From assembly GCA_016176505.1 (NCBI GenBank), contig JACOXB010000007.1, positions 1-56,283 on the forward strand: a DNA stretch of 56,283 bases. Reading direction: 5' to 3'. The stretch is from Candidatus Colwellbacteria bacterium (GTDB lineage: Bacteria; Patescibacteriota; Minisyncoccia; UBA6257; Colwellbacteraceae). Positions 1,701 through 47,412 of this stretch are shown one piece after another (within the stretch, counting starts at the first letter, position 1; each line of letters starts with the position of its first letter). The translations under genes and the position numbers were made by a program. Below the pieces are notes generated by a model. It did not search any database, was not told where the DNA came from, and saw only the letters and a program-made list of their open reading frames with translations.

Positions 1701-4127
1701 TTATTGTCTAGGTAGAATTTCCCTGATTGAAGGGGCCACCACGGTAACTGAATCTGAGGCTTGACCCCCATCGTTTTGGCAAGTCAGGGTATAAAGAGTG
1801 GTGCCGCCAGGGGTAACCACTTGCTGACCCGAAGTGGGTTTCGAGCCATTCCAGTCAGAATCGCTTGGGCTTGCCGAAGCTGAACAAGAATCAGCATTAC
1901 TGGTTGACCAGGTTAAAGTGGCAACGCCACCCTGGTAAATCACGGTTGGGTAAGCATCAATATCAACTGTCGGTGGAACATCGCCGCCGCCACCGCCACC
2001 ACCGTCTCCGCCACCGCCGCCATCGTCGCCACTGTCTTCTGGCTCAGAAACATTAATAGTTACTCGGGCCTCTTCAGAGAAATTCTCTCTTTCAATAATC
2101 ACCTTAGCTGTATAGGTGCCGGCGCTTGAGTAGGTGACACCCGTACTCTTAGGGTTGGAATTTACGCCGTCGTATTTAGCATCCCAAGCGCCACAAACCT
2201 GAGCTGCTTCACTGACAGCAACTTTTGGATTATCGCAGTCTTTCCAGAAAGTGTAATTAATAGTACCCGTAGCGGTTCCACCCGCCTTGGCTCTTAAAGT
2301 TGTGCTCAAAGGCGCGTCGCCCGAAGTCGGATTGGCGCCGAGATTAGCTGTCAAGTGATGCTGCTGCTGCTGAACACTAACCGTTACAGAATCTGAAGCC
2401 GCGCCATTAGCGCCGGTACAATTTAAGGTATAAGTTTGATCTGCCGTAAGATTGCCGCTTGAATAATTACCCGAGGTTCCAGTCCAACCAGTTGGCGAAA
2501 CCGTACACGAGCTGACGTTGCTCGAGGACCAGCTAATCATAGCCGAAGTATTATAAGGGATAATAACCGGGCCATCAGAGCCATTAGCTTTAATATCGGC
2601 GCTTGGCGTAATCGGCGCATTAACATTAACGTTCACTGAGTCTGTGCAGGAAGAGCTCCCCGCCCCGGAACAAGTTAGAGTATATCCCTGACTTTGGGTT
2701 AAAGCGCCGGTTGATTGAGAACCCGAAGTCGCTTTTGAACCGCTCCAACTGCCAGAGGCAGTACAAGAAGTGGCGCCGGCTGAACTCCAAGAAAGAGTGG
2801 AAGATCCGCCTGAGGTAACCGAAGTCGGATTGGCATTAATATCAACCGTACAGCCAGTAACATTGCAGGTGGTTGACGCAGAGCAGGTTCCTCCAGCGCC
2901 ACTGCAACTTTGGGTATAACTTCGGCTTGAAGTTAAGGCGCCAGTATTCTGACTGCCCGAAGTACCGCTCCAAACAGTACTATTGGCGCTATTTGTCACC
3001 GAACAAGAAGCAGCGTTAGTGCTACTCCAGGAAACAGCGGCCGAATTACCAGTCGTAACCGAACTGGGATTGCAGTTAATAGAGCAGGTAGGAAGGGGCG
3101 AAGTTACGGTAACTGTTTCCGAGTCAGAACCAGACCCAACAGCGTTAGAGCAAGTAAGAGTGTAGGTCGTAGTTGTAGCGAGGGTACCGGTTGACTGTGA
3201 TCCTCCGGAAACCGACTTCGAGCCGCTCCAACCCCCAGAAGCAGTACAAGAAGTTGGGCTATTAGTAGTGGCCCAAGTAAGAGTACTTGAGTTACCAGAG
3301 ACAACTGAGGTAGGGCTAGCCGTGAGATTCACTGTCGGGGACTTAGGACATAACCCACCAGCCGTAATATTAACGCTGACACTATCGCTTCTCGTGCTAA
3401 ATCCGTTCGTGCACTGCATCCCGTAAGTCCTTGTAAATGGCGGTGGGTTAGGATTGTTGTCCTCTTGACCGGTTCTAGAATAACTTCCGGGGATATTTAC
3501 ATGGGTCCCTGGAGATGGCCACCAATCACTGTTAGCCCCGTTCTGAAAAGTGCAAGAGCCGCCAAATAGATACTGATTGTCCCAAGAAATAGTAAAGTCT
3601 TTGCAAGCCGGGGAAGAATTCGGCCCGCTAACATCAACTATTACATTCTGCTTGCAAGTGCCTGCGCCACTAGTTTGCGACCAGGTGTCATCAGCATTTT
3701 TCACCGCACAAGTTGTATCTTCTGTCCCTTTACACCAACAACTGGCATTGGGATTACAAGCCTGATTTACTCCGCCAGGATAACTAGCACAGGGATCCGA
3801 GGGTGGTGGTGGGCCGCCGCCGTTGCCGTCGCCGCCAACTAAGGTGCAGCCAAGATTCCCCCCGCCAGTGCACTGCCATGCTGGGATACCAGGTTTTGCG
3901 GTGGTCCCACACCAGTAACCACTACCGTCTGTGTGAGAATGAATATCTTGAGCTCCAGTACATTTATCTGGGTTACTAGGATAACAATCGCAACTGTATT
4001 GAGGGTCAACATCGTGAGCCTCAGTCGGCGGCGCCAGGAGTAATTGGAAGATAAAGTAAGAGGCTGCTAGAGATAAAGCGATGAGTAATACCCCTATTAA
4101 ATAATTTTTAGAAAAAGAGTGGGTCAT
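1701..4127 (-). CDS. large secreted/cell-surface repeat protein (Ig-like/PKD-like repeats)
   Basis: 808 aa with an N-terminal TM/signal segment and a Cys-rich N-terminal region. At least 6 tandem Ser/Thr/Gly-rich repeats of about 75 aa follow (NPTSV.SG.SSTLSWSS..A.SCTASG.WSGSK..GSQSTG.LT...YTLTC), then a PKD-like segment and a GGGGGDGGGGGGGD linker. Confidence 0.85.
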   Translation of the reverse strand: MTHSFSKNYLIGVLLIALSLAASYFIFQLLLAPPTEAHDVDPQYSCDCYPSNPDKCTGAQDIHSHTDGSGYWCGTTAKPGIPAWQCTGGGNLGCTLVGGDGNGGGPPPPSDPCASYPGGVNQACNPNASCWCKGTEDTTCAVKNADDTWSQTSGAGTCKQNVIVDVSGPNSSPACKDFTISWDNQYLFGGSCTFQNGANSDWWPSPGTHVNIPGSYSRTGQEDNNPNPPPFTRTYGMQCTNGFSTRSDSVSVNITAGGLCPKSPTVNLTASPTSVVSGNSSTLTWATTNSPTSCTASGGWSGSKSVSGGSQSTGTLATTTTYTLTCSNAVGSGSDSETVTVTSPLPTCSINCNPSSVTTGNSAAVSWSSTNAASCSVTNSANSTVWSGTSGSQNTGALTSSRSYTQSCSGAGGTCSASTTCNVTGCTVDINANPTSVTSGGSSTLSWSSAGATSCTASGSWSGSKATSGSQSTGALTQSQGYTLTCSGAGSSSCTDSVNVNVNAPITPSADIKANGSDGPVIIPYNTSAMISWSSSNVSSCTVSPTGWTGTSGNYSSGNLTADQTYTLNCTGANGAASDSVTVSVQQQQHHLTANLGANPTSGDAPLSTTLRAKAGGTATGTINYTFWKDCDNPKVAVSEAAQVCGAWDAKYDGVNSNPKSTGVTYSSAGTYTAKVIIERENFSEEARVTINVSEPEDSGDDGGGGGDGGGGGGGDVPPTVDIDAYPTVIYQGGVATLTWSTSNADSCSASASPSDSDWNGSKPTSGQQVVTPGGTTLYTLTCQNDGGQASDSVTVVAPSIREILPRQ

Positions 4128-4560: not shown

Positions 4561-4603
4561 ACTATTAATTATAGCAATCTGTATAAAAATAGGGTGTTAA
4601 TTT

Positions 4604-4646
4604 CTAAAAACGAGCAGCGCCTGCCCCCGGGACGGGGGCAGGCGCT
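4604..4646 (-). terminator. intrinsic terminator of GC-rich cassette G1
   Basis: Perfect 14-bp stem AGCGCCTGCCCCCG / CGGGGGCAGGCGCT with a 3-nt loop, followed on the minus strand by GCTCGTTTTTAG. It lies 10 nt after the stop of ORF 4657..5487. Confidence 0.8.
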
Positions 4647-4656
4647 CATCGAAGCC

Positions 4657-5487
4657 CTACCTTTGGGGAAGTAGGTAGGGGAAGAACTGGCGGAGTGCCC
4701 TGGTCTCATCGCCGTAGAAGTGAAGACCGTTTTCAGAGCCTGTCCAGGCACTGAACTCCAGGAGAACGTTGTAGTCCCGGAGCCCCGGAATCGGCAACTC
4801 TCTCGCGGGCTTGGTCACAACGGCTAGCACTTCACCTCGCCTGACCCACTCTCCTTGAGTCGGTCCGCTAGGGAAGTGGAGCGCCGGTCCGCTGACCCAA
4901 AGAACCAGACCATCCTTGAAGCCGTAACCGCCTTCGTAGACTGAACCGACGGTGATCCAATCGCTCTCCCAGCGCTGGATCGAGTGATCCGCGGCGAACC
5001 CGATGACGTACTGATCGCCATCGAATGGGACTCGGAGAACGGTTCCCTCCGGCAGGCGGAAGGCAACTCCCCAGGGGCGCCATCCCAACTCGCCTCGGTA
5101 GTACAGCTCTCCGAACCGCACCAGGCGCCCATCGGCGTAGAACTCCTTAGGCACCACCCGGATCCCCAATCCAGACGGTACCACTGGCGGAGGTGTCGTC
5201 GGCGTTGTGGTCGGCTCGGTTGTCGGAGATGTCGACGGGGAAGTCGACGGCTCGGTCGGGCCCACGCTCGGCGAAACCGAGGGCGAAGTCGTCACCCGTG
5301 GCTCCGGCTCCATCCTTACCGCGATGGCCCAAGTCGCGATAACCGCGACCAGAACCAAAACGATGAGGATGGCCAGGCTTCGCCGGAAGCGTCGCCGGTC
5401 CTTCTTCGGAGCTCGGGGTGGAACGTAGATCGGCGGCCAGGTGACATCCGGCCGCACGCGTGATGGCACCTTGGCCACCGTACTCAC
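4657..5487 (-). CDS. GC-rich cassette G1: membrane-anchored protein with Pro/Thr/Ser-rich linker, unknown function
   Basis: 276 aa, GTG start preceded by GGAAAGGAAGG. It has a basic N-terminus, a TM segment (LAILIVLVLVAVIATWAIAV), a PTS-rich linker and a C-terminal beta-rich domain of about 170 aa. GC is visibly higher than in the flanking genes. Confidence 0.75.
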   Translation of the reverse strand: MSTVAKVPSRVRPDVTWPPIYVPPRAPKKDRRRFRRSLAILIVLVLVAVIATWAIAVRMEPEPRVTTSPSVSPSVGPTEPSTSPSTSPTTEPTTTPTTPPPVVPSGLGIRVVPKEFYADGRLVRFGELYYRGELGWRPWGVAFRLPEGTVLRVPFDGDQYVIGFAADHSIQRWESDWITVGSVYEGGYGFKDGLVLWVSGPALHFPSGPTQGEWVRRGEVLAVVTKPARELPIPGLRDYNVLLEFSAWTGSENGLHFYGDETRALRQFFPYLLPQR

Positions 5488-5579
5488 CTTCCTTTCCTTC
5501 TCTGCTTATTCGGTTCTCAAAGTTCAGGCTCGCCTTGCCGGAGCCCAAGAAAACCGACACGACGGGCAATTCTAGCCCT

Positions 5580-5608
5580 ATTATACCCCATTCCCCGCCC
5601 TTTTTCAA
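5580..5608 (-). promoter_or_regulatory. sigma70-type promoter of G1 (TTGAAA-N17-TATAAT)
   Basis: The minus strand reads CTTGAAAAAGGGCGGGGAATGGGGTATAATAGGGCTAGAA. It is nearly identical to the G2 promoter at 7266-7293. Confidence 0.7.
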
Positions 5609-5639
5609 GGGCTGAAAAAGGACAGTCTAAGGAGATACC

Positions 5640-6926
5640 TTAACGGCGGCGAAGGATCGGAGACGCCGAGCGAACAATCCGCCGAACGGCTGGTATGTGT
5701 TTTGGGTTCCCGAAAGTGACTATATTAATCCCTGGCGTATTGATCATCCTTTTAGCGATCCGGATTGTCCGATCGTAGGACATGCGACGTATCTCATTAA
5801 AGATATCTTCAAAATTAGGGACTCGATTTTCAATCATATAGTAAGCGCCGATCTCACTGATAGTCTCGGCATCGGATTCGAAATCAATAAGCAAAGACTT
5901 AATCGCGCTGGCCTTAGTGATCTCGAAGCTGTTGCGTAGATAATCTTTGGAGTAATTTAATCCGTTTCCCTCGATAATGCGCCGTAGGGCCTTCTCAAGA
6001 TCGTTAGTATTATTGAAAATACCGTAAATAGAAAAAAAGACTATTTTCCCAGACCAATATAGAGTGCTCCCCACCCGATATGCCAACCCGTCTTCTTTAA
6101 TCGGTTGCAAAAGTTTATCTATTAAGCCGTTCGCTCTTTGAAGAGAATATCTGATCCTTGGGGTAGAAGCCCGCCATACCGGCACGGATATAAAAAGATA
6201 GGTTTGATTAATGCCTGTTTTTAAAAAATGTTGTACGCGGAACTGGCTAAAAGTTGTTTTGCGCTCCTTAACAAATGGTGGTTTTGGTTTATGGCGTTTA
6301 CCGAAAGCCTGATTAATAGACTTTAATGAAGTTTTATTTAAAGAAAAAGGGGCGGAAATAACTAGGCAGGCGTTACGAGGATGATAGTATCTGGCGTAAA
6401 TATTACGGATACGTTGAAGATTTAATTCCGATACAGCGCTTTTCCGTCCACCAATATCCCTAAAAACAGAGTTTTTTTCTAAAAATCTCACATCGACTAA
6501 ACGGTTAAAGGCCGTCCCGTCCGGATCGTCACCCGCCTCAGCTATTTCATTAATGATGCGGTTCTTCTCGGCCCTTACCATTTCTTCTTTAAAGTCTGGC
6601 TGAAAAAACATTTCTCCAAGAACTTGGGTTGTTTTAGCGAAATTCTCTGGGAGGACGGATACGTTATATTGTGTATAAACACGAAGTGTCTCCGCCCCTA
6701 TACTCGCTCCGATTTGCGGCGCCTCGAGACGAGGACGAGTAGACGCTACAATCAAGTGCTCAATGAGGTGGGCTATTCCTTCAATCGGTTCATTGGCGCC
6801 ACCGATTCTAACAAAAAGACCGATACCGATAGTATTGATTGTTGGTCTTTCGTGCCAAAAAACCTTCAAGCCATTTTTAAGAGTAATAGTCCTAAATCGG
6901 GGAATATAGTAAGCCTTTTGCTTCAT
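5640..6926 (-). CDS. M16 (pitrilysin) family zinc peptidase
   Basis: 428 aa with the inverted zinc motif HLIEH (HxxEH) near the N-terminus, in the typical M16 two-domain length range. Confidence 0.85.
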   Translation of the reverse strand: MKQKAYYIPRFRTITLKNGLKVFWHERPTINTIGIGLFVRIGGANEPIEGIAHLIEHLIVASTRPRLEAPQIGASIGAETLRVYTQYNVSVLPENFAKTTQVLGEMFFQPDFKEEMVRAEKNRIINEIAEAGDDPDGTAFNRLVDVRFLEKNSVFRDIGGRKSAVSELNLQRIRNIYARYYHPRNACLVISAPFSLNKTSLKSINQAFGKRHKPKPPFVKERKTTFSQFRVQHFLKTGINQTYLFISVPVWRASTPRIRYSLQRANGLIDKLLQPIKEDGLAYRVGSTLYWSGKIVFFSIYGIFNNTNDLEKALRRIIEGNGLNYSKDYLRNSFEITKASAIKSLLIDFESDAETISEIGAYYMIENRVPNFEDIFNEIRRMSYDRTIRIAKRMINTPGINIVTFGNPKHIPAVRRIVRSASPILRRR

Positions 6927-6963
6927 GCTTATAGTAATTAAATCACAGAGTGCCTAGAAGTGG

Positions 6964-6992
6964 AAAGGCGCGAATCAGTGACTCGCGCCTTT
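6964..6992 (-). terminator. GC-rich hairpin closing cassette G2
   Basis: AAAGGCGCGA, 9-nt loop, TCGCGCCTTT. The U-tract on the minus strand is weak. Confidence 0.5.
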
Positions 6993-7013
6993 CGGTGGAG
7001 AACGAGGCATCGC

Positions 7014-7070
7014 CTATCCGTGGATCGGCTCACCATCGTCGTCGAACTCTGTCCCCTCCGGGGGTCCCAT
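7014..7070 (-). CDS. G2 small ORF b (18 aa, acidic: MGPPEGTEFDDDGEPIHG)
   Basis: The ATG is preceded by GGAGGAGGTG and the ORF ends before the hairpin. Too short to validate from sequence alone. Confidence 0.3.
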   Translation of the reverse strand: MGPPEGTEFDDDGEPIHG

Positions 7071-7104
7071 GCCTTCATCACCTCCTCCTAGGAGCTTTCC
7101 GATT

Positions 7105-7191
7105 TCACCAGCTCGGCTGGTTGTCGTCCGAGGCAGGTTTCGGAAGAGGCCTGCCGCAGATGCACAGCGGTTGGTCGAGAAGCGAATCCAT
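7105..7191 (-). CDS. G2 small ORF a (28 aa: MDSLLDQPLCICGRPLPKPASDDNQPSW)
   Basis: The ATG is preceded by GAGGAGGCGCTT (strong SD). It is the first ORF after the G2 promoter and leader. Confidence 0.35.
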   Translation of the reverse strand: MDSLLDQPLCICGRPLPKPASDDNQPSW

Positions 7192-7265
7192 AAGCGCCTC
7201 CTCTAGTTATCCTCCACCGTTAAGAAGTGGTTTCGAGGTGCGGGCAAAGAGCTATTTCTAACCCT

Positions 7266-7293
7266 ATTATAGCATTCCCCGCCATTTTTCAAG
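7266..7293 (-). promoter_or_regulatory. sigma70-type promoter of G2 (TTGAAA / TATAAT, 15-16 nt spacer)
   Basis: The minus strand reads CTTGAAAAATGGCGGGGAATGCTATAATAGGGTTAGAA, which is homologous to the G1 promoter. Confidence 0.6.
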
Positions 7294-7350
7294 GGGTAGG
7301 AAAGGGGGCTCCAGAAACTAGAAATAGGGCCGCGAAAATTCCTGAAGAAC

Positions 7351-7638
7351 CTAATTTTTGGAAAATAATCGCTTTCTCTTTCGATTAGCCCTCTCAAAAT
7401 AATCAAGCCACCAGAGTAAGTCTTCTTTAGAAGTGGCCTCGGTTAGGAAAATTTCTAAATTACCCGCCTGTTCCCCTTCAGCGCGAAATTCTTTAACGAT
7501 ATCCTCTATATCTTCCTTGTAAAATCCGGGGCCAGCTAAGCCTATTAAAGCTCCTATCTGATCGTCCCTTAAGGCGAGCATCCTAGATACTATTTCCGCT
7601 CTTTCTTTTTCCTCCCATTGTAGTTCTTCTGCGTTCAT
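7351..7638 (-). CDS. hypothetical acidic helical protein
   Basis: 95-aa ORF immediately downstream of the HExxH protein gene. Confidence 0.6.
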   Translation of the reverse strand: MNAEELQWEEKERAEIVSRMLALRDDQIGALIGLAGPGFYKEDIEDIVKEFRAEGEQAGNLEIFLTEATSKEDLLWWLDYFERANRKRKRLFSKN

Positions 7639-7676
7639 AAATCCTCCTAAATTAAGATGGGTTCTGAGGGGTAGAT

Positions 7677-8219
7677 TTAGTTTTCTTTTAATGGACGGGT
7701 GTGAAGTTTTTTAGAAAGATATAATGCGACAAAGTTGTTAAAGGGTCCTTGTGATCGGGTAAATAATGTGGCTTTACCGTCGCTAGTTCTCCGAACCCAC
7801 CATTTCTTTTTATAAAGTGAGTCGAGCCACATTACTTCTTCTTTAGTCCCCGTTGACTTTAAAAACCTCCTTTGTGCCCGATAAGCCTCTCCCTCGGCTC
7901 TACTACCAAAAGCCCTCTTCCCTCCGTCGTGTTGTCTCAAATGTTCTGCTTCGTGAACTAGTAAAGAGGCAAGATAAGCAAGGCTCGATTCTAAAACCGT
8001 TTGCGTTTTGCATACCCATATCCGTTCTTTATAGAATAACTGATTTTCGTACCCTCTTTTTTGATAAATCAAAATAGCATCCAGAGATTTTATTAACTTA
8101 AATGTTCTAGGCCGATTTCGTTTAACAAATAGTACCGCTCTGCTCATTTTAGAGAGGTCTTTTTTTGATATGCTAACGATTACAATCTCTTGAAATTTTT
8201 TCTTATAGAAAACGGGCAT
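7677..8219 (-). CDS. putative zinc metalloprotease-like protein (HExxH)
   Basis: 180 aa containing LLVHEAEHLRQH (HExxH) followed by conserved Glu residues. No closer family assignment possible. Confidence 0.65.
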   Translation of the reverse strand: MPVFYKKKFQEIVIVSISKKDLSKMSRAVLFVKRNRPRTFKLIKSLDAILIYQKRGYENQLFYKERIWVCKTQTVLESSLAYLASLLVHEAEHLRQHDGGKRAFGSRAEGEAYRAQRRFLKSTGTKEEVMWLDSLYKKKWWVRRTSDGKATLFTRSQGPFNNFVALYLSKKLHTRPLKEN

Positions 8220-8245
8220 CCGACTTCATAAATTATAAATTAGAT

Positions 8246-8270
8246 GGCCCGCAGGGAGTACCTGCGGGCC
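8246..8270 (-). terminator. hairpin closing cassette G3
   Basis: GGCCCGCAGG, GAGTA loop, CCTGCGGGCC, followed on the minus strand by AT-rich ATCTAATTTATAATTT. Confidence 0.6.
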
Positions 8271-8287
8271 AGAGAGCGGTTCCGCCC

Positions 8288-8374
8288 TTACTTGGGAGGC
8301 GGAGTAGGAGGCACGGGTCTACCGGGCCCTTCGGGCTTCGGGTATGGACCGGGCTTACCGGGCTTGTCTCCCAT
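8288..8374 (-). CDS. G3 small ORF b (28 aa, Pro/Gly/Lys-rich: MGDKPGKPGPYPKPEGPGRPVPPTPPPK)
   Basis: The ATG is preceded by AAAGGAGGTGGTGAAAA. The ORF ends 18 nt before the hairpin. Confidence 0.35.
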   Translation of the reverse strand: MGDKPGKPGPYPKPEGPGRPVPPTPPPK

Positions 8375-8377
8375 TTT

Positions 8378-8539
8378 TCACCACCTCCTTTCTGAGATCC
8401 GGTCGAAGATGCGGCGCACCGACGACCACCTCCACCAGAAGAAACGCGAGGACGAGAGCGAACGGTGCCAGCCTCTCGGCCTCTTCTTGCCCTTGGAATG
8501 CTGGCGGTTGCCGCTAGGTCTAGGGTGCCTTCGGGGCAT
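8378..8539 (-). CDS. G3 small ORF a (53 aa, Arg-rich); frame uncertain
   Basis: The ATG is preceded by GAAAGGGGGTGTG, and the stop lies inside the SD of ORF b. An alternative frame encodes a TM-like peptide (LAPFALVLAFLLVEVVVG) but has no ATG/GTG start. Confidence 0.25.
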   Translation of the reverse strand: MPRRHPRPSGNRQHSKGKKRPRGWHRSLSSSRFFWWRWSSVRRIFDRISERRW

Positions 8540-8671
8540 CACACCCCCTTTCGTCAAGGTGCGGACAGTTTGTACTATCTAACCGATACGCCCTTTTTAG
8601 AGTTTTTTCAAGAACTCAAATTCCCAGGGTTTTAGCTACTTTCAGGTCCAAGTCAGTAGTGATTAGAGCTT

Positions 8672-8905
8672 TTACTTGCGAATCGGTTTTATATTATAAC
8701 CAGTTTCATCAAGAATCTCCCGCTTAACGCATTCTTCTCTCGATTCATTGTAGCGCTGCTTGCCGCCAGGGAAAGCCCACTCAAGCACAGCGTCAGCGCT
8801 TCCAGTTTCTTTCTGGGCTCGGCGAATCATCAAAACTTCGCCCTTTTTATTAAGAACAATGCCGAGATTTATAAAATTAAGGCTTTCGGTTTTTTGTTCT
8901 GCCAT
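8672..8905 (-). pseudogene. truncated Nudix hydrolase (ends 12 aa after the Nudix box)
   Basis: The 77-aa sequence MAEQK...GGKQRYNESREECVKREILDETGYNIKPIRK-stop has an intact Nudix box (GX5EX7REUXEEXGU) but lacks the C-terminal half of the fold. It abuts GC-rich cassette G3. Confidence 0.5.
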
Positions 8906-8933
8906 AGTTAAATATTTTAGATTTTTTGGAGCC

Positions 8934-8968
8934 AAAAAGCGAAAACGCCCTCAATGGCTTTGAGGGCG
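8934..8968 (-). terminator. intrinsic terminator downstream of G4 ORF and tRNA-Phe
   Basis: CGCCCTCAA, 5-nt loop, TTGAGGGCG, followed on the minus strand by TTTTCGCTTTTT. Confidence 0.75.
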
Positions 8969-9027
8969 TCGATGGGCCTGCGGGCTTGTCTCGCCGTAGT
9001 CTGCCGAAGGCAGACGCAGGCGGATCG

Positions 9028-9101
9028 TGGCGGGGGGAGGAATCGAACCTCCGACACCCCGGTTTTCAGCCGGGTGCTCTGCCGTCTGAGCTACCACCGC
9101 C
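9028..9101 (-). tRNA. tRNA-Phe (GAA), slightly irregular
   Basis: The minus strand reads GGCGGTGGTAGCTCAGACGGCAGAGCACCCGGCTGAAAACCGGGGTGTCGGAGGTTCGATTCCTCCCCCCGCCA. The anticodon loop is CTGAAAA. There is one acceptor mismatch (T6/C67) and an extra nt before the D stem. Confidence 0.75.
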
Positions 9102-9119
9102 GGGTGGAACGCGGGAGAG

Positions 9120-9398
9120 TTACTCCCGAACCGGGATGCCAGGCATCGGCACCCCGACTGCTTCGCACTGGTCAGCTTGCCAGCCGACCAGGTAGAAACT
9201 CGGGTCGTGTTCAGCCTGGATCTTCCAAGCCTCGCACTCCGCCTTCTCTTGCCGCTTGAGGGCGGTATCGATGTCGGCCCTCACGAAAACCGCGAGAACC
9301 ACGAGTATCGCCGCCAGCAGCCATACCCAGGCGAGGCTGGCGCGCCGCTCACGCTTCTTCTGCCCCCGGTAAGGGAGGCTAATGTAGCTAAAAGACAT
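9120..9398 (-). CDS. GC-rich cassette G4: small membrane-anchored protein, unknown function
   Basis: 92 aa; the ATG is preceded by GGAAGGAGGAGGA. It has a basic N-terminus, a TM segment (LAWVWLLAAILVVLAVFV) and an extracytoplasmic tail with 2 Cys. The stop lies 18 nt upstream of tRNA-Phe. Confidence 0.65.
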   Translation of the reverse strand: MSFSYISLPYRGQKKRERRASLAWVWLLAAILVVLAVFVRADIDTALKRQEKAECEAWKIQAEHDPSFYLVGWQADQCEAVGVPMPGIPVRE

Positions 9399-9483
9399 TC
9401 CTCCTCCTTCCGGGGCCGCACGAAGTATGTCGGAGAACTATCCGCGCTTCGCGCGAGCAGTTCCCGCGCAAACACGTTTTGCT

Positions 9484-9512
9484 TTTATAGCATAGTTGCC
9501 CGCCCTAGTCAA
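9484..9512 (-). promoter_or_regulatory. sigma70-type promoter of G4 (TTGACT-N17-TATAAA)
   Basis: The minus strand reads TTGACTAGGGCGGGCAACTATGCTATAAA. The -35 box overlaps the stop of ORF 9505..10278. Confidence 0.65.
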
Positions 9513-22820: not shown

Positions 22821-23192
22821 CTAGCTGCCGGTGTGGGCCGAGGCGATGATCTCGATGGTGCTCGCGCTCTCAAGCGCGAGACCGAACGCGATCACGTCGT
22901 CGACCGTGAACGCCGGACCGCCCCAGTGGAGCTCACGCCATGAAGAGGGCTCGAGCTCACGAGGAGCGGGAGCCGCGGTCGCGGGCGACTCCGGCTCGAC
23001 CACGTCCACGCCAGCCGAGACGAGCAAGGACACGATCTTGCGGTCGGCCGGCTTGTCCACGACGTCGGAGCAGGCCGGGCAGGTGAACCGGTATCTGCCT
23101 TCGCGACCGCCATGGATCACCCAGAGCGCAATCGCCTCCGGCCTCATGTCTACCTCGCCACAGCGAGGGCACGTCGACCTGATGGTCGTCAT
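22821..23192 (-). CDS. G5-2: zinc-ribbon protein, unknown function
   Basis: 123 aa with CPRC...CPAC near the N-terminus and a Pro/Ala linker. The ATG is preceded by GAAAGGAGGGAAGCGTA. Confidence 0.7.
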   Translation of the reverse strand: MTTIRSTCPRCGEVDMRPEAIALWVIHGGREGRYRFTCPACSDVVDKPADRKIVSLLVSAGVDVVEPESPATAAPAPRELEPSSWRELHWGGPAFTVDDVIAFGLALESASTIEIIASAHTGS

Positions 23193-23417
23193 TACGCTTC
23201 CCTCCTTTCGAGTTTCGGCGCGCAGCCCTTCGATGAGTTCGGGATGAAAGGCTATGCGCCGAAACCCGGATTTTTAAAAAGAACAGTTCGACTTCGCTCA
23301 CTGCAGGCATTTCGATTTCGCCCGCGTAAACTTTCTCCATCTAAACCCACTATCTTTTGGATAATGAGCTTAGGTGAGGGGGCATTGCGGCTGCCCCAAG
23401 CCGTGGTGCTAGGATGC

Positions 23418-23666
23418 CTACCGCCACCGCTCCTGCGCCCGCTTCTTGATGTAGTCGGTCGAGTGATCCACCCCGATCTGCGTGTCGCAGACCGGGCAGC
23501 GGACGAAGTACCGCTCGTTGCTACGGTATTCCTCGTCCATCTCCCGACCTCCCCAGCTCACGTCGGCGGAGTAGTGAACATCCTCCGAGAGGTCGGCCTC
23601 GAAGGAGGTGTGGCAGTGGGGGCAGGAGAACCTTTTGGCTCCTGCGCCGTGGCTGACAATCTTCAT
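23418..23666 (-). CDS. G5-1: small zinc-ribbon protein, unknown function
   Basis: 82 aa with CPHC...CPVC. The ATG is preceded by GGGGAGAGGAAG. The hairpin GGGGCA/TGCCCC follows the stop. Confidence 0.65.
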   Translation of the reverse strand: MKIVSHGAGAKRFSCPHCHTSFEADLSEDVHYSADVSWGGREMDEEYRSNERYFVRCPVCDTQIGVDHSTDYIKKRAQERWR

Positions 23667-23904
23667 CTTCCTCTCCCCTCAGAGTCTTGGTCCGGTTCCT
23701 TTTCCCGGACCTAGCTGGTGAGGAAGTCGGGCTTCCCCACTAGTCAGGTCCGGGTTTATATTCAAGGTGCGATTTCTCCCATAAGGAGAATAATGAAGAG
23801 GAAAACGCGAGTGAGCCTTTTAATATTGCTTGGTTGCTTCGGTTCCTCTTCATTACTCTCCCCACAACATCCTTACATACTCCAGTATTTAAGGATGTTG
23901 TTCC

Positions 23905-23999
23905 TAAATAAAGAAAACGGCGAGGAGATCTCGCCGCTTTCTTAAGAGTCTCTCTCCTCTTTATATTTCGATATGTAGCGTACTTGCCTATTCCAGAAT
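23905..23999 (-). ncRNA. candidate small RNA or attenuated leader (promoter-to-terminator unit of about 95 nt without ORF)
   Basis: It lies between the consensus promoter (24006-24034) and the hairpin CGGCGAG-ATCTC-CTCGCCG + TTTTCTTTATTT (minus strand). There is no ATG/GTG/TTG in between. Confidence 0.35.
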
Positions 24000-24005
24000 A
24001 CCCTT

Positions 24006-24034
24006 ATTATACTATATCTCTTATAGCTTGTCAA
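24006..24034 (-). promoter_or_regulatory. consensus sigma70 promoter TTGACA-N17-TATAAT (no adjacent ORF)
   Basis: The minus strand reads TTGACAAGCTATAAGAGATATAGTATAAT. Confidence 0.7.
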
Positions 24035-24084
24035 GCCCCCAAATAGGCCTTATTTAGGGGGTTTTTAGCTTTCTCCTCATCTTT

Positions 24085-24256
24085 GGGGTAAACACATAAA
24101 CGTCGATCGCATCCACTCGCTCCCCAGACACCCTCGGTTTCTGGCGGTCGCCTGACACAGCAGGCGACCTATTTTCCGACACGGGAGGAACCTTATACTT
24201 TCCTCCCGACCCCTCCTTCGGTTTCTGATTTACTCCTACGCATTTTAGGGGTAAAC
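24085..24256 (-). repeat. element E3: structured insert in the 3' end of the GT2 gene, bounded by GTTTACCCC repeats
   Basis: The 9-bp cores are at 24248-24256 and 24085-24093. The inner blocks GGGGTCGG, two hairpins, GCCAGAAACCGAGGGTGTCTGGGGAGCGAGTGGATGCGATCGACG are homologous to E2 (33818-33928). Confidence 0.7.
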
Positions 24257-29448: not shown

Positions 29449-30134
29449 TCAGCCTGCCATTAGTCCTCGGTATCGTTCCTGCCCTTTTCTGGTTGGTCTT
29501 TTTTCTCCAAGAAGACTGGCGTCAGCCCGAACCAAAAAGGTTGATTTTTTTACTTTTTATCGCCGGCGGAGTGGCAGCTGTTTTAGCTATCCTACCCGAG
29601 CTTTTTATCGATAAAAACTTCCCCCTAGCTCCCGGTGTGCCGCCTGAACTCTCGCCGCTTCTTTTGCCCTTCGCCCTAATCGAGGAGCTCGCCAAGTTTG
29701 GAATAGTTTATTTGATTGTCAGGCCGAATAAATACTTTGACGAACGGGTTGATGCGATGATTTATATGATAACGGCTGCCCTTGGTTTTGCTGCGCTTGA
29801 AAACGTACTCAATCTTTTCGGCAACGAGGCCATTGTCGAAGTGGCTCTACTCCGGGGGATTGGCGCGACTCTGCTCCACGCCCTGGCCGCAGCCATCCTG
29901 GGCTTTTATTGGGCTAAAGGCAGAATTATGACCGGCATCATTGGTGCCACTCTGCTCCACGGCGCTTTTAATTATCTGATTTTGAAAGTGGATAGCACAA
30001 TTTTGTATCCATCAGTTCTCCTTTTCCTGGCTGCTATTTTTGTATTCCAAGATTTTGAAATTTTAAAGGATGAGGATTACGTAGCCTCAAGAAGAATCTT
30101 ACCAAAAAGCAAAGCGGCTCCTGCCTCGAAGTAG
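29442..30134 (+). CDS. PrsW-family intramembrane protease-like protein
   Basis: 230 aa, multi-TM, with EELAKF, HALAAAILG and HGAFN motifs. Confidence 0.7.
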   Translation: MVISLPLVLGIVPALFWLVFFLQEDWRQPEPKRLIFLLFIAGGVAAVLAILPELFIDKNFPLAPGVPPELSPLLLPFALIEELAKFGIVYLIVRPNKYFDERVDAMIYMITAALGFAALENVLNLFGNEAIVEVALLRGIGATLLHALAAAILGFYWAKGRIMTGIIGATLLHGAFNYLILKVDSTILYPSVLLFLAAIFVFQDFEILKDEDYVASRRILPKSKAAPASK

Positions 30135-30179
30135 ATACCCCTACTCCAAGCGGAGCCGCTTTAGGCGTTACTGGGCACA

Positions 30180-30608
30180 TCATCCCTCCTGCACCCCCTC
30201 GAACAAAGAGGCGACCTCCTTGGTCAGCTGAAGCAGCGCTCTTTCGTCGAAGCCCTTCGAGACGAGCTCGTCCGATGAATCGAGCCACCGCTGCCACGTC
30301 GCCTCCTTGGCCTGCCGGTTTCCGTAACCGGCCCGAGCCAGCCGGAATCGAACGAGGCGCGAGAAGTTATCGGCCAGAAGCTCGATCACCTGGTCGGCGG
30401 GGACCGCGAGAGAACCGATCCGGATGTCGACGAGCCACTCCCGAAAGGCGCGGAAGGCAGCTTCGATCCGCGTGGCCTGTTGCTTCCGAGCCCGCTTGTA
30501 GAGCTTCGACTTCTTCAGCAGCTCGAGGGCCTTGGTACCGACCTCGACCGGATCGAGTCGAGTTGGCTCGACGGAATCGTTCCCGGGATTCCCAAGCGCG
30601 AGAGCCAT
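30180..30608 (-). CDS. GC-rich cassette G6: all-helical hypothetical protein
   Basis: 142 aa; the ATG is preceded by GAGAGGAAGGAGGTGAAAAAAG. It is visibly GC-rich relative to prsW-like and hsp20. Confidence 0.7.
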   Translation of the reverse strand: MALALGNPGNDSVEPTRLDPVEVGTKALELLKKSKLYKRARKQQATRIEAAFRAFREWLVDIRIGSLAVPADQVIELLADNFSRLVRFRLARAGYGNRQAKEATWQRWLDSSDELVSKGFDERALLQLTKEVASLFEGVQEG

Positions 30609-30750
30609 CTTTTTTCACCTCCTTCCTCTCAATCGTGCCCGTGTATTTCAAGGTGCGGGCAAGGGACAGCTGCCCTATTTTGGCGGTAAAGAGCTGGGCG
30701 AGTCAAGGTAGGCCTCTCCTCTTCAAATTAGTTCTTGTATAATAGAAAGG

Positions 30751-37815: not shown

Positions 37816-38385
37816 ATGTTGGAGGACGAACAAGAACTAGTTAAAAGGGCAAAAGGTGGGGAGGCCGAGGCTTTTGGCTTACTGTATGACTACTATTTGC
37901 CTAAAATCTATCGCTTCGTCCTACTAAAGGTAAGCCATCGTGAGGAAGCCGAAGACCTCACCCACCAAACTTTTTTAAAAGCCTGGCAGAACATTGACCA
38001 ATACGATTTCCGCGGCCATTCTTTTGGCAGCTGGCTCTACCGAATCGCTAGAAACGCGGTGATTGACTACCACCGAAAAGGCAGGATCTCACCAGCGTTC
38101 AGCCTTGATGATTTTGAGCTCGAGCTCCCGGGCCAGGAAAGATCGCCCGAAGAACTCCTCGAATCAAGACTCGAGACCGAAACTATCCTCGAGGCGATTC
38201 GCGAGCTTAAAGAGATCGAACAGGAAGTGCTCTTGATGCGCTTTGTTGAAGAGCTGAATACTAAAGAAGTGGCGGAAATTGTTAAGAAAACCGAAGGCGC
38301 GGTAAAGCTAATTCAGCACCGGGCCCTCAAGAGTCTAGCTAAACTTTTAGACGAGAAAAACAATGGAGGAAACAAAACTAATTAA
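37816..38385 (+). CDS. ECF-type RNA polymerase sigma-70 factor
   Basis: 189 aa; regions 2 and 4 are recognisable (DLTHQTFLKAW..., LNTKEVAEIVKKTEGAVKLIQHRALKSL). Confidence 0.85.
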   Translation: MLEDEQELVKRAKGGEAEAFGLLYDYYLPKIYRFVLLKVSHREEAEDLTHQTFLKAWQNIDQYDFRGHSFGSWLYRIARNAVIDYHRKGRISPAFSLDDFELELPGQERSPEELLESRLETETILEAIRELKEIEQEVLLMRFVEELNTKEVAEIVKKTEGAVKLIQHRALKSLAKLLDEKNNGGNKTN

Positions 38386-38839
38386 AAAGCTGAAAATCCT
38401 TAAGTCAATCGAGCCAGATTCTGGCTACGCTCGGCTTTCGCGCGCCTTAATCCTCAACCAAAAAGAAAGAACTCTGTTCATTCCTGCTTGGGGGCGGAAG
38501 GCTTTTTCGCGCAGTTTGAATTCAGTTTTTTCAGTAGCTCTGGCGACTGTCTTTTTCATGGTCCTTGCTCTGGGGGGCCTGGTTGGTGCTTTTAAAAATC
38601 TTTTATTCCCGTCTCTGCCGGGTATTGATAACCAAAGCCTAGTTACGGAGGCAGATGCGGTTACCCAGAACATTGATACCCGACTAGGGGAAATTCAATA
38701 CTTCAGCGGCGAGGAAGTGGCTATGAAGCCAGCCGAGGAGCCAAAGACCAAACCATCTCCAGCCGAACCGGGGACCGTAAAACCGGTGAGCGACGAGGAA
38801 GAGGTCGACGCCCTGCTTGATAAAGTAATAAGTTATTAA
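38363..38839 (+). CDS. membrane protein, putative anti-sigma partner
   Basis: 158 aa with a central TM segment. It overlaps the sigma gene end. Confidence 0.6.
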   Translation: MEETKLIKKLKILKSIEPDSGYARLSRALILNQKERTLFIPAWGRKAFSRSLNSVFSVALATVFFMVLALGGLVGAFKNLLFPSLPGIDNQSLVTEADAVTQNIDTRLGEIQYFSGEEVAMKPAEEPKTKPSPAEPGTVKPVSDEEEVDALLDKVISY

Positions 38840-39597
38840 TGAAAGACTTAAGAAAAAACTCGTTTATCTCAACTCTCGCCGCTATTATTTTTCTCGGCTC
38901 TTTGCCGGTTGTAGCTACCGCCGAAATCACAACTCCAGAGGTTGCGCCCGAGGCCGCGGCCGAGATGACCGAGGAAGCGGCCAAAGTACTCCAGGCCAAG
39001 GATGATATGACTAAAGCCCTGAATATAGCCGCTGAAAGGGTGGATGCCCGGAAGAGCGAACTTGAGAAGCTTAGTTTCCCTGAAGCTAGCCGTGAAGCTG
39101 AACTGAAAGCCTCTTTACTCCAGGAACTAGATGGCTATAAAGCTTATTATCTTCGGAAGCGAGAAGCGCTCGCGAGTCTCACTAGCCTTGAAGAAATAAA
39201 AGCCCTGGCGCAGGAGATTAAGACTTACCGCGAAGAAATCTACGCTCCGGAAGGGCAAAGAATAGTCGCCTTTATTTCTCTCTACGCCAACGAGTCTGAC
39301 CTTGGAGTGACCAAAGAAAGATTCGAAAAAATTAAGACTGACCTTGATAACTTAAAAGGGCTTGGGCTTATTGATGAAACTGTTACGCTCGATGAGGTTA
39401 GCTTGATCGATGGCCTACTCCAGGAATCAGCCAATTCCCAAAATGAGGCGAGAGAATTAATTCTTGGCGGATCGAGCAATGATTCGGCTCGTGCCAACGG
39501 CCTAATTCAAGAAACAATGGCAAGAATCAAAACTACTTACGATCTCTATCTCAGCTTAAGCGGGACGGTAAACAGCAAATTAGGAATCGGGAAATAG
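38839..39597 (+). CDS. secreted coiled-coil protein (DUF5667-like, tentative)
   Basis: 252 aa with a signal peptide and a helical repeat region. It overlaps the upstream ORF's TAA stop in a TAATG junction (38837-38841). Confidence 0.65.
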   Translation: MKDLRKNSFISTLAAIIFLGSLPVVATAEITTPEVAPEAAAEMTEEAAKVLQAKDDMTKALNIAAERVDARKSELEKLSFPEASREAELKASLLQELDGYKAYYLRKREALASLTSLEEIKALAQEIKTYREEIYAPEGQRIVAFISLYANESDLGVTKERFEKIKTDLDNLKGLGLIDETVTLDEVSLIDGLLQESANSQNEARELILGGSSNDSARANGLIQETMARIKTTYDLYLSLSGTVNSKLGIGK

Positions 39598-46150: not shown

Positions 46151-46633
46151 TTAAGCGTATCTGTCTGCCACCGATGAGGCGGCGTAACTTTCGGGCTTGG
46201 TTTTTGCTTCAAAATCATGGGCTCGGATAATACCAACGAGCTCCTGAATCATCTTGCGCGATTCGCCGTTTTCGCCCACATCAACGTGAATTTCAAAATC
46301 AAATGGCGGCGCCTCAAGCTCGCGTAAATGATTTAAAACAATTTTGGCTGTATCCAAAGAAACAATTACTTCTTTCAAAATCCGATCTCGGAGAGTGTAA
46401 AAGTTTTTTAGCTCTACCCGGCGCCAGAAATAGCGACCGCCGTTACCAACCCGGTGAACCACAATGGCCGTTACAAAATCAGCCTCGGTCTTGTTGTAAA
46501 GTTCGGAATCAGTGCCGATCGTTACTTTATAACTCCGCTCCGGATCAGCTTTCATAAAGCGAATCAGCTCCTGGGCCACCTGCTCCGGCGACATCTTAAG
46601 CCCAAAAGAGCTATTAAATAATGGTTGCTCCAT
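46151..46633 (-). CDS. YkuK/DUF458-like RNase H-fold protein
   Basis: The start is set at MEQPLFNSS (46633). The pattern ...TIGTDS...FVTAIVVHRVGNGGRYF...E...S.. resembles YkuK (from memory). The track ORF extends 42 codons into GC-rich G7 DNA. Confidence 0.7.
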   Translation of the reverse strand: MEQPLFNSSFGLKMSPEQVAQELIRFMKADPERSYKVTIGTDSELYNKTEADFVTAIVVHRVGNGGRYFWRRVELKNFYTLRDRILKEVIVSLDTAKIVLNHLRELEAPPFDFEIHVDVGENGESRKMIQELVGIIRAHDFEAKTKPESYAASSVADRYA

Positions 46634-46647
46634 ACTTCTCGCATCAT

Positions 46648-46695
46648 AAACGGAAAAGGCCCACGGTTCAATGGCCCTTCCGGGCCCCGTGGGCC
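46648..46695 (-). terminator. intrinsic terminator closing cassette G7
   Basis: GGCCCACGG, 20-nt loop with inner GGCCC-GGAA-GGGCC, CCGTGGGCC, then TTTTCCGTTT on the minus strand. Confidence 0.75.
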
Positions 46696-46724
46696 ATGTG
46701 TTGTCTGATCCGGGGTAGCCGGCG

Positions 46725-46985
46725 TCAGAACAGTAGTTCGACTCGGCGACTGCTCGCATCGACGAGCCGGGTACCTGGCAGCGCCAGTGCCCCGGCCCTC
46801 GTACCGGGTGCCACGCTGACCGAGAAGTAGGCTGTGAACCCGGAATACCGGGTGATCCGAGCCGCCGTGACCCCGGGCAGGGCCAAGAGCGACCGGCGAA
46901 GATGTGTCAGCCGCCCGAAGCTCGTAAATCTTGTCATCACGACCTCGACCTCTGGCTCGAGCTCAACTGCCTCGAACGTCATCAT
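46725..46985 (-). CDS. G7b: GC-rich hypothetical protein (86 aa)
   Basis: It starts ATGATGA, overlapping the stop of G7a, and is preceded by GAAGGAGGCGGGGG. Confidence 0.6.
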   Translation of the reverse strand: MMTFEAVELEPEVEVVMTRFTSFGRLTHLRRSLLALPGVTAARITRYSGFTAYFSVSVAPGTRAGALALPGTRLVDASSRRVELLF

Positions 46986-47272: not shown

Positions 47273-47346
47273 CTTTTCTCACCTCCCCGTTGCGAAGAAC
47301 ATCTCTCCGGTCTTTACCGAAGAATCACCGCCTTGGTGATTTCAAA

Positions 47347-47375
47347 ACCATACCACACTCGACGTACTTGGTCAA
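47347..47375 (-). promoter_or_regulatory. promoter of G7 (TTGACC-N17-TATGGT)
   Basis: The minus strand reads TTGACCAAGTACGTCGAGTGTGGTATGGT, followed by the leader hairpin ATCACC-AAGG-CGGTGAT. Confidence 0.55.
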
Positions 47376-47412
47376 CCTGATTGCCCCTTAACTTTGCCGT
47401 CTCATCCATTTC

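Follow-up and report, generated by a model that had tools for sequence, protein, structure and literature searches.

Horizontally acquired islets and ORFan genes of atypical composition are reportedly accounted for by the amelioration model of Lawrence and Ochman. Bacteria usually acquire DNA that is richer in AT than their own, and in AT-rich genomes islands of high G+C content (GC) mark structured RNA genes, as seen in screens in hyperthermophiles. Here we analyse seven compact GC-rich units, G1 to G7, in a 56,283-nucleotide stretch of DNA from a Candidatus Colwellbacteria bacterium (contig JACOXB010000007.1 of assembly GCA_016176505.1), which is referred to below as the window. An earlier, sequence-only reading had described G1-G4 as small expression cassettes and had mentioned three more of the same style.

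On balance we consider it probable that G1-G7 are genuine accessory genes that go back to an old import of high-GC DNA, have since exchanged modules and are slowly losing GC. Patescibacteria (candidate phyla radiation, CPR) have tiny genomes and depend on other cells, and most of their accessory surface-directed genes are unannotated; the locus offers an easily computed compositional flag for such genes.

Composition of the GC-rich islands

The window has a GC of 48.5%, with a median of 47.5% over windows of 200 nt. Merging windows of at least 58% GC yields seven islands, and a sliding-window profile shows abrupt plateaus of 58-66% GC that coincide with all seven units:

4590-5583, G1 island, 61.8% GC
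6938-7221, G2 island, 57.7% GC
8202-8603, G3 island, 58.0% GC
8911-9489, G4 island, 60.6% GC
21267-23762, G5 island, 61.6% GC
30105-30688, G6 island, 60.8% GC
46618-47311, G7 island, 61.7% GC

The four segments that had been judged GC-rich by eye are confirmed by computation, and the three later cassettes are present as islands of 61-62% GC; all seven segments have 58-64% GC compared to 48.5% for the window. The units are spread over 43 kb, all on the minus strand and between ordinary genes. Their description as self-contained, minus-strand, intergenic units is borne out, as they have their own predicted promoter, a Shine-Dalgarno (SD) site and mostly a terminator.

Islands and host genes contrast most strongly at third codon positions, where GC (GC3) is 0.70-0.96 in ten island open reading frames (ORFs) and 0.35-0.53 in 24 host ORFs. 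By sliding GC and by GC3 the islands differ clearly from the rest of the window. Among synonymous codons, AAG accounts for 97% in the islands compared to 29% in host genes, ATC for 87% compared to 29% and TTC for 93% compared to 33%, while lysine makes up 2.8% of the residues instead of 7.2% and asparagine 0.9% instead of 3.7%. This codon and amino-acid usage is typical of genomes of ~65% GC and fits a high-GC ancestry. The dinucleotide signatures of the islands are closer to one another than to the host; those of G5 and of G6-G7 exceed the 95th percentile of host segments of equal length, while that of G1-G4 lies just within it.

The genes around the islands encode ClpB, RecG, a class I aminoacyl-tRNA synthetase, FtsK, RNase Y, a short IF-2, the CCA-adding enzyme, RbfA, HSP20 and an extracytoplasmic-function (ECF) sigma factor. 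ClpB is 64-70% identical to proteins from metagenome-assembled genomes of Paceibacterota, Colwell-, Lipton-, Wolfe- and Jorgensenbacteria. Based on these housekeeping genes and on the ClpB similarity, G1-G7 lie in the chromosome of an uncultured, groundwater-type CPR bacterium of the Paceibacteria group.

Regulatory modules and sister organisms

We compared the window organism (W) with a sister organism (X, contigs L004, L132 and L148) and with the organisms of contigs L005 (V), L006 (Z) and L123 (Y). Sigma70-like hexamers are predicted with N17-N18 spacing in G1, G3, G4, G6 and G7, and those of G2 stand 15 nt apart. A promoter scan misses the G2 site because of this short spacer; the G2-G4 promoters were read directly from the sequence. 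The predicted promoters and the terminators of G1, G3 and G4 are as follows:

5580-5608, minus strand, G1 promoter module A, TTGAAA-AAGGGCGGGGAATGGGG-TATAAT with an N17 spacer
7292-7266, minus strand, G2 promoter, a variant of module A, TTGAAA-N15-TATAAT
8583-8611, minus strand, G3 promoter module B, TTGAAA-N17-TATCGG, then the leader GTTAGATAGTAC...CCGCACCTTGA
9484-9512, minus strand, G4 promoter, TTGACT-N17-TATAAA
30706-30677, minus strand, G6 promoter, TTGACT-N18-CAAAAT
47375-47347, minus strand, G7 promoter, TTGACC-N17-TATGGT
4616-4646, minus strand, G1 intrinsic terminator, a 14-bp stem then GCTCGTTTTT
8245-8271, minus strand, G3 terminator hairpin from a terminator scan
8944-8970, minus strand, G4 terminator, whose copy in the sister organism stands directly after the ORF

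The sigma70-type promoters claimed for G1-G4 can thus be found as predicted hexamers, with a degenerate one in G3 and a spacer of only N15 in G2, and the GGAGG-type SD sites are present in all four. The GC-rich 3' hairpins hold as terminator-like structures for G1, G3 and G4, which have a T run; the hairpin of G2 is there without one.

A common block of ~70 nt lies upstream of G1 and G2 in the window and ahead of three X cassettes that are rich in GC. Its sequence is (G)CCCTTGAAAAAGGGCGGGGAATGG(GG)TAT before two variants diverge. Variant A continues with -AATAGGGCTAGAAATAGCTCTTTGyCCGyAC, so that the -10 element is TATAAT, and variant B with -CGGTTTAGGTAGTAC...CCCGCACCTTGA, giving TATCGG as the -10 element. 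A 21-nt core of the module, TTGAAAAAGGGCGGGGAATGG, is exact in W, X and Z, and the A and B modules of W, X, Y, V and Z can be aligned. The variant B of G3 is degenerate but can be aligned with the copies of module B in L004, L123 and L005. Because the spacer between the hexamers is conserved, the block appears to be more than a generic sigma70 promoter, and it may represent a shared operator or a module copied between genes. In G4 both hexamers are kept between W and X and the spacer has diverged, as would be expected if the promoter is functional. Within X, and likewise within Z, different cassettes have near-identical terminators.

The modules are narrowly distributed. In a motif scan of metagenomes only the lineages of W, X and Z plus Y (L123) match, chance hits aside. 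No related copy of the promoter motif was found in GTDB representatives, where the matches look like chance and come from unrelated taxa, or in viral contigs, where the leader motif also gave only chance matches without protein similarity. The window also encodes, at 37816-39597, an ECF-type sigma factor (Sigma70_r2 plus r4), followed by ORFs of 158 and 252 amino acids (aa) without a family match, which are possibly an anti-sigma pair.

The nearest homologue of the G1 product (P0002) is encoded on L004, a contig of 11.4 kb that stems from another project and shows synteny with the window; the neighbouring mechanosensitive-channel protein, a 186-aa protein and a large repeat protein are 89%, 74% and 52% identical, respectively. 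Overall the flanking host proteins of X are 54-89% identical to those of the window, and its GC-rich homologues stand in matching neighbourhoods with identities of ~50% for G1, 53% for G4 and 48% for the cold-shock gene of G5. On L148 the cold-shock homologue lies beside the 3' end of a convergent gene, the position that RecG takes in the window; that gene was not itself compared. The island homologues have 60-69% GC and their neighbours 41-47%, and a contrast of this kind is also seen in V (L005, syntenic with G1 and the downstream genes) and in Z (L006).

The synonymous divergence (dS) between W and X is 1.0-1.4 for island genes and 1.3-3.1 for flanking host genes. Synteny together with this host-like dS indicates that at least G1, G4 and the cold-shock unit were in place before W and X split and are not recent independent insertions. 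Of the two explanations offered by the sequence-only reading, repeated acquisition, taken as recent, is therefore not supported for these three units, which have GC-rich syntenic homologues in X. A lineage-specific gene family proved half right: the class is lineage-restricted, but it is not a single protein family, as unrelated proteins share regulatory and N-terminal modules.

Ratios of nonsynonymous to synonymous divergence (dN/dS) are 0.27-0.32 for G1, 0.48 for G4, 0.43-0.74 for the cold-shock gene, 0.26 for a family termed '293' and 0.06-0.12 for host genes (all Nei-Gojobori). Coding conservation is thus seen, with dN/dS below 1, for G1, G4, the cold-shock gene and a short upstream ORF in G3 (below), and purifying selection on the island genes is weaker than on host genes.

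Evidence for exchange comes from the way the 5' modules are joined to the encoded proteins. One 5' module (module 1) consists of variant B, an upstream ORF (uORF) and the N-terminus MV[RG]FSDGG.ERRRFW, the other (module 2) of variant A and an N-terminus with VRPDVT.PP.Y.PP.APKK.RRRF. Both run into the same transmembrane (TM) segment and Pro/Thr linker, and behind this shared anchor stand two unrelated C-terminal domains, one LytM-like and one of the '293' family:

module 2 with the LytM-like domain, window G1
module 1 with the LytM-like domain, X (P0002)
module 2 with the '293' domain, X
module 1 with the '293' domain, Z (P0004)

As all four combinations are present, recombination must have taken place within the shared anchor or linker region. 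Whole elements vary as well: the 68-aa unit that stands in the window between the TM unit and the cold-shock gene is missing from L147.

Another X cassette with variant B (L004 3258-4502) encodes a 57-aa Cys/Asp-rich precursor-like peptide and an MvdD-type ATP-grasp enzyme, a pair of the graspetide/microviridin-like type of ribosomally synthesised and post-translationally modified peptides, with an ABC exporter upstream and a TPR protein downstream. Among 80 Paceibacteria loci fetched via ClpB no homologue of any island protein and few comparable islands were found. Isolated genes with a GC3 of 0.71-0.85 were observed at L028 1357-1823, L030 3674-5363 and L083 3467-4274 on backgrounds of 43-52% GC, one of them a lipoprotein-like ORF; sporadic GC-rich accessory genes may be commoner across Patescibacteria.

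Products of the individual units

The G1 unit comprises the following parts:

4604-5612, minus strand, G1 cassette with module A, a ~90-nt leader, the 276-aa ORF and the terminator; 62% GC
4657-5487, minus strand, G1 ORF, 276 aa, GC3 0.72

Its real start may be a GTG at 5478. The product has a basic N-terminus, a TM helix at residues ~31-57, a Pro/Thr/Ser linker and a LytM/M23-like domain at residues ~105-276. Three close relatives (50-53% identical) were found among 5.8 billion clustered proteins, and an exhaustive profile search over 1.84 billion representatives gave 28 matches. An exact look-up of the 276-aa product gave no match, probably because gene callers chose another start; P0001 is a call of 166 aa. 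Pattern searches for the family in GTDB representatives found nothing. A distant member of the family, P0009, sits in a contig of 70% GC.

An AlphaFold2 model built on a 17-sequence alignment reaches a mean pLDDT of 80 and shows the linker as disordered and the domain as beta-rich; an earlier model from three sequences (pLDDT 42) was unusable. In a Foldseek search of the PDB, ranks 1-13 for the domain are all LytM/M23 proteins (LytM, EnvC, lysostaphin, Csd3) with probabilities of 0.98-1.00 and a TM(target) of ~0.5 on single-domain targets. A profile search of the PDB retrieves the M23 entry 5kqb with E = 1.6e-3, while the Pfam Peptidase_M23 model does not match at E <= 0.1. The HxxxD and HxH zinc ligands are absent from the family, in which G108, G157, G218 and F269 are the only invariant columns; H204 of G1, for example, is replaced by Q in P0003. 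Since no His or Asp is invariant among the 17 members, the modelled C-terminal domain is most likely a non-catalytic LytM-like module outside the membrane. The earlier reading, which recognised no motif in the ORFs of G1-G4, thus fails for G1; G5, too, has a recognisable feature, a cold-shock domain.

An 808-aa secreted protein (1701-4127) is Ser/Thr/Gly-rich, with repeated Cys-containing modules of ~90 aa and a poly-Gly/Asp tract. It has no Pfam match; its counterpart at the syntenic position of L004 has 906 aa and shares 52% identity with it.

G4 combines a small anchored protein with a tRNA:

9120-9398, minus strand, G4 ORF, 92 aa, N-terminal TM anchor and C-terminal domain with two conserved Cys, GC3 0.77
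9027-9101, minus strand, tRNA-Phe(GAA)

The homologue of the protein in L132 (94 aa, 53% identical, 60% GC) lies between DUF3298 and Nudix genes, as in the window. The irregular tRNA-Phe noticed in G4 is a real tRNA, detected by ARAGORN and by Rfam (54.7 bits, cut-off 29), with one deletion or mismatch (a bulge) in the acceptor stem. Together with flanks of ~45 nt (~8983-9119) it is inserted between the G4 stop codon and the terminator relative to X. L132 has no tRNA at this site, and the insertion is seen in W only.

G5 is an array of 2.5 kb with five GC-rich ORFs:

21240-23770, minus strand, G5 array
23666-23418, minus strand, 82-aa Zn-ribbon ORF
23192-22821, minus strand, 123-aa Zn-ribbon ORF
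22807-22658, minus strand, 49-aa TM ORF
22392-22186, minus strand, 68-aa TM ORF
21903-21421, minus strand, 160-aa ORF with a cold-shock domain (CSD) and a Zn-ribbon
23754-23704, 23268-23209, 22521-22465 and 21971-21920, leader hairpins of 18-23 bp just upstream of SD sites
22653-22611 and 21398-21356, related terminators

The array carries three copies of the box GTTCTTTnTCAAAAAT, which is distinct from the A/B module. Residues 1-66 of the 160-aa protein match the cold-shock domain PF00313 with 41.5 bits (cut-off 27, E = 1.3e-10). A protein database search gives three relatives, and homologues with the same leader occur in L147 and L148. Across three organisms the leader hairpin retains 18 of 18 pairs, three of them through compensatory double changes; this leader does not match the cspA thermoregulator of Rfam. 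The 82-aa protein has no homologue besides itself among the 5.8 billion proteins.

Two further features border on G5. An imperfect hairpin of ~100 nt (21249-21349; 43-nt arms, 74% complementary, no Rfam match) separates the palindromic RecG terminator (21200-21235) from that of the CSD gene and is conserved in X (L148 ~715-825). Between G5 and a glycosyltransferase gene, ~420 nt of lower GC (23770-24190) hold no convincing ORF and several hairpins (e.g. 23910-23945), with only chance-level Rfam matches.

The two remaining later units contain orphan ORFs:

30140-30745, minus strand, G6 cassette, a leader and a 142-aa helical ORF (30608-30180), antisense between PrsW and HSP20
46655-47375, minus strand, G7 cassette, a leader and ORFs of 96 aa (47272-46982) and 86 aa (46985-46725) that overlap by ATGA
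~46700-46655, minus strand, G7 terminator hairpin

Sequence searches of the PDB with the G6 protein and both G7 proteins gave nothing. Downstream of G7, a 202-aa ORF (46151-46759) matches RNaseH_like (PF04308) from residue 60 only, and its first ~42 codons cross the G7 terminator; its true start is probably an ATG at ~46633 (MEQPLF...). A long AT-rich palindrome, aaaaattttcatgctatagcatgaaaattttt, lies at 47400-47445 just upstream of the G7 promoter, and every independent contig ends there.

G2 and G3 are the smallest units, and their coding capacity is the least certain:

6945-7292, minus strand, G2 cassette with the module A variant, a leader with a GAAA-loop hairpin, two candidate ORFs and a 3' hairpin
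7191-7105, minus strand, candidate 28-aa ORF of G2 with a good SD site
7070-7014, minus strand, candidate 18-aa ORF of G2 with a good SD site
8378-8539, minus strand, uORF of G3, 53 aa, arginine-rich, starting MPRRHPRPSGNRQHSKGKKRPRGWHRSLSSSR
8288-8374, minus strand, 28-aa Pro/Gly-rich ORF of G3, in the position of the main ORF of relatives

The uORF is the best supported of these. Its counterpart in X starts MSRRHRKPSGKRQHSKGKKRPRAWHRSLSSSR and lies directly upstream of the G1 homologue (L004), and the tail of a uORF of this type precedes P0004 in Z (L006). Over the first 32 codons W and X differ by a dN of 0.07 and a dS of 0.77 (dN/dS ~0.09), which argues that the uORF is translated and constrained. 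In W, X and Z its stop codon falls within or next to the SD site of the next ORF, so that translation of uORF and main ORF is probably coupled or occluded. The 53-aa ORF noted in G3 is therefore a conserved uORF, which precedes large genes in relatives. G3 as a whole resembles a 5' module that has lost its main gene or had it replaced, and its 28-aa ORF may be a remnant or a real small peptide.

For the 28- and 18-aa ORFs of G2 and the 28-aa ORF of G3 no homologues were found, and they are best treated as candidate, unproven peptide genes. An alternative holds that G2 and the 3' part of G3 are non-coding, being structured RNAs or decayed cassettes that keep promoter and terminator. The missing homologues favour it, as does the tiny ORF of G3 at a place where relatives carry genes for 250-280 aa. 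In addition, no T run follows the G2 hairpin (~6996-6963), which lies immediately ahead of the start of the M16 peptidase (6926), and the transcript may read on into the M16 gene. However, no Rfam family matches, the fold z-scores are only -1.9 for G2 and -2.0 for G3, the candidate ORFs combine good SD sites with a coding-like GC1/2/3 pattern, and the G3 uORF is clearly under purifying selection. We regard the non-coding explanation as possible but doubtful.

The region of the G2 3' hairpin is conserved in Y (L123), ahead of an M16-like gene; the M16 peptidase of the window has no relatives in GTDB representative genomes. In the regions 6926-7292 and 7677-8640, G2 and G3 each lie directly upstream of a putative peptidase gene, for the M16 peptidase and for an HExxH protein, respectively. 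Any functional tie between their small peptides and these peptidases is speculative.

Origin of the high GC and comparison with known systems

According to the import reading that we favour, each unit would be transcribed independently: a predicted sigma70-type promoter, a structured 5' leader and a ribosome-binding site of the GGAGG type precede one or a few GC-rich ORFs, and in most cases an intrinsic terminator follows. The products would be mostly envelope-directed or nucleic-acid-binding, with the LytM-like protein of G1, the anchored proteins of G4 and G5, the Zn-ribbon and CSD proteins of G5 and the orphans of G6 and G7. The DNA would have been imported from high-GC donors before the split of W and its sister species. 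Later, promoter, leader, uORF and anchor modules would have recombined with C-terminal domains, whole units would have been gained and lost, and the proteins would have evolved fast while their base composition drifted slowly towards that of the host. High-GC ancestry is suggested by the location of P0009 in the contig of 70% GC, by the excess of GC>AT changes and by the shared non-host dinucleotide signature. In a parsimony polarisation of third-position changes, 66 are GC>AT and 33 AT>GC.

Several observations weigh against this reading. No donor was identified: the closest relatives of the tested island proteins belong to the same small CPR clade or do not exist, and nothing was found for island proteins in GTDB representative genomes, phages or plasmids. 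G6 and G7 have no relatives in family, structure and local-locus searches; the large protein databases were not searched with them. W and X both have a GC of 0.91 at the four-fold sites (GC4) of the cold-shock gene, despite a host dS above 1.3. This is hard to square with neutral amelioration and fits maintenance; by a rough estimate, exponential decay from any possible ancestor cannot give such a value. The GC>AT excess may in part be a parsimony artefact in GC-rich sequence, and as this bias is known in skewed sequences, the excess does not settle between decay and maintenance. In style the promoters are native, which argues against a simple import of at least the 5' modules. Finally, it is from the DNA alone that the activity of the promoters, the ends of the transcripts and the translation of the small ORFs are predicted.

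These points bear directly on a second explanation, in which the high GC is actively maintained, either by selection (for GC-rich codons or for a dedicated regulon of highly stable, structured mRNAs) or by GC-biased gene conversion, which frequent recombination through the shared modules would drive. It is consistent with the fact that W, X, V, U and Z, thus five organisms or more, have GC-rich homologues, and with the cold-shock gene, whose four-fold sites are more conserved than those of host genes. Recombination between modules, a prerequisite for GC-biased conversion, is demonstrated, and the conserved 5' hairpins with compensatory changes and the strong terminators point to selection on the mRNA. 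On the other hand, polarised substitutions run 2:1 in favour of GC>AT, the shift in lysine and asparagine resembles that after long residence in a high-GC genome, and RNA folding yields z-scores of just about -2 for G2 and G3. Moreover, the known effects of GC-biased gene conversion in bacteria amount to a few percent GC3 and not to 30-50 points. We therefore judge maintenance to be rather unlikely as the general explanation and favour the relic reading, with some constraint on synonymous sites in the cold-shock gene. A broader form, to which we attach still less weight, is that a small Paceibacteria clade keeps GC-rich, hyper-structured genes that diversify envelope or host-contact proteins, with portable 5' modules and maintained GC, and with G2 and G3 as peptide genes beside the M16 and HExxH peptidases.

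Recent independent mobile cassettes (integron-like elements, miniature transposons, or phage or plasmid remnants) would explain why the units are small, dispersed, intergenic and atypical in composition and why whole units are present or absent among relatives. The 82-aa G5 protein also weakly matches phrog_2834 (1e-9), an uncharacterised family. Against this stand the syntenic positions in X with dS similar to host genes and the predicted promoters that the units carry. No direct or inverted repeats of at least 10 nt occur at any island border (the longest shared are 8-9 nt, which is the chance level), and no integrase was seen among the window ORFs scanned, which were not all ORFs. With PHROGs, island proteins gave only a generic CSD match besides the one to phrog_2834. 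Searches of phages and plasmids with tblastn and blastn returned nothing meaningful, the promoter and leader motifs have no meaningful match in viral contigs, and PADLOC found no defence system among the island proteins. Recent mobility is accordingly very improbable. Searches of the island proteins with Pfam, PHROGs, NCBIfam and PADLOC led to no assignments other than the cold-shock domain and generic Zn-ribbons. Rfam at the gathering threshold reports tRNAs only, and a permissive search of G1-G4 and G5 gave chance-level matches. A search of the literature on GC-rich genes in Patescibacteria found nothing relevant.

Specific mobile identities were rejected as well. A transposon or miniature inverted-repeat element is rejected for lack of terminal inverted repeats and target-site duplication, and an integron cassette because the units are dispersed, have their own predicted promoters and terminators, lack attC sites and share no border repeats. 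A phage or plasmid remnant is not recognisable by PHROGs, tblastn/blastn or viral motif scans, which gave no meaningful match.

The integrity of the assembly was assessed with independent Logan contigs, found by exact-protein look-up in at least seven other sequencing runs of one series. All borders of G1-G4 are 100% identical to the window in L001-L003 (those of G1 in L001 and L003), and those of G6 in L138-L141. The downstream border of G7 is 100% identical in L142-L146, which end in the palindrome just upstream of the G7 promoter. L136 contains the entire G5 plus AT-richer flanks but does not quite reach the genes on either side. An assembly chimera, or contamination from a co-occurring high-GC organism, can hence be set aside: although the window is a metagenome assembly and Logan contigs tend to break near some borders (e.g. 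21210 and 47442), these breaks fall at palindromes, the borders of G1-G4, G6 and downstream G7 are identical in 3-5 independent assemblies, and ENA, JGI and Logan samples of other projects show the same architecture in another organism.

The only difference between the window and L001 lies in the Nudix gene, where 136 bases of L001 (2174-2309) are missing from the window at 8677/8678. As a consequence the product has 87 aa in the window and an intact 141 aa in L001, whose copy is 85% identical to the protein of sister X, which is intact, too. The 'Nudix fragment' noted earlier thus arises from an assembly-specific deletion of 136 bp, which is either a real deletion variant or an assembly error.

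The exchange of anchors and domains between genes is clearly evidenced, and the conserved promoter/leader module and uORF are both directly testable. That GC-rich DNA persists in a lower-GC genome across speciation bears on the speed of amelioration in reduced genomes and on whether local forces hold composition off the genomic equilibrium. If the islands are simply old imports, they provide useful annotation; if their composition were maintained, this would amount to an unusual heterogeneity of equilibrium GC below the kilobase scale.

Among known systems, acquired islets and ORFans resemble G1-G7 in foreign codon, amino-acid and dinucleotide usage between core genes, in fast-evolving lineage-restricted proteins and in a net GC>AT drift. 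G1-G7 differ in being 13-15 points GC-richer than the host, in their synteny in a sister organism and in their shared promoter, leader and terminator modules, with no donor or mobility genes found. RNA-marking GC islands show similarly sharp GC peaks, and one island here holds a tRNA; the islands described here, however, are mostly protein-coding, with the highest GC at third codon positions. Integron cassettes are likewise small, mostly single-ORF units of heterogeneous function and composition that are present or absent as wholes, but they are promoterless, end in attC and are arrayed at intI/attI, whereas G1-G7 are dispersed, each with its own predicted promoter and mostly a terminator.

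At the level of the products, LytM proteins, including the non-catalytic EnvC and NlpD, are like G1 in the predicted fold and in the TM-anchored placement outside the membrane; G1 differs from LytM/M23 proteins in its missing invariant metal ligands, in the lack of a Pfam match and in its layout of anchor and Pro/Thr linker. Genes of the cspA type have a long structured 5' untranslated region, as does the G5 CSD gene with its long leader and conserved hairpin of 18-20 bp. The G5 protein carries an additional C-terminal Zn-ribbon, however, and the same leader layout also precedes unrelated neighbours. Polymorphic surface and toxin systems of the contact-dependent inhibition (CDI)/Rhs type likewise combine a constant 5' module and anchor with swappable C-terminal domains, while the cassette proteins are small (240-290 aa) and have no recognised toxin domain or immunity gene, and one of their C-terminal domains is LytM-like.

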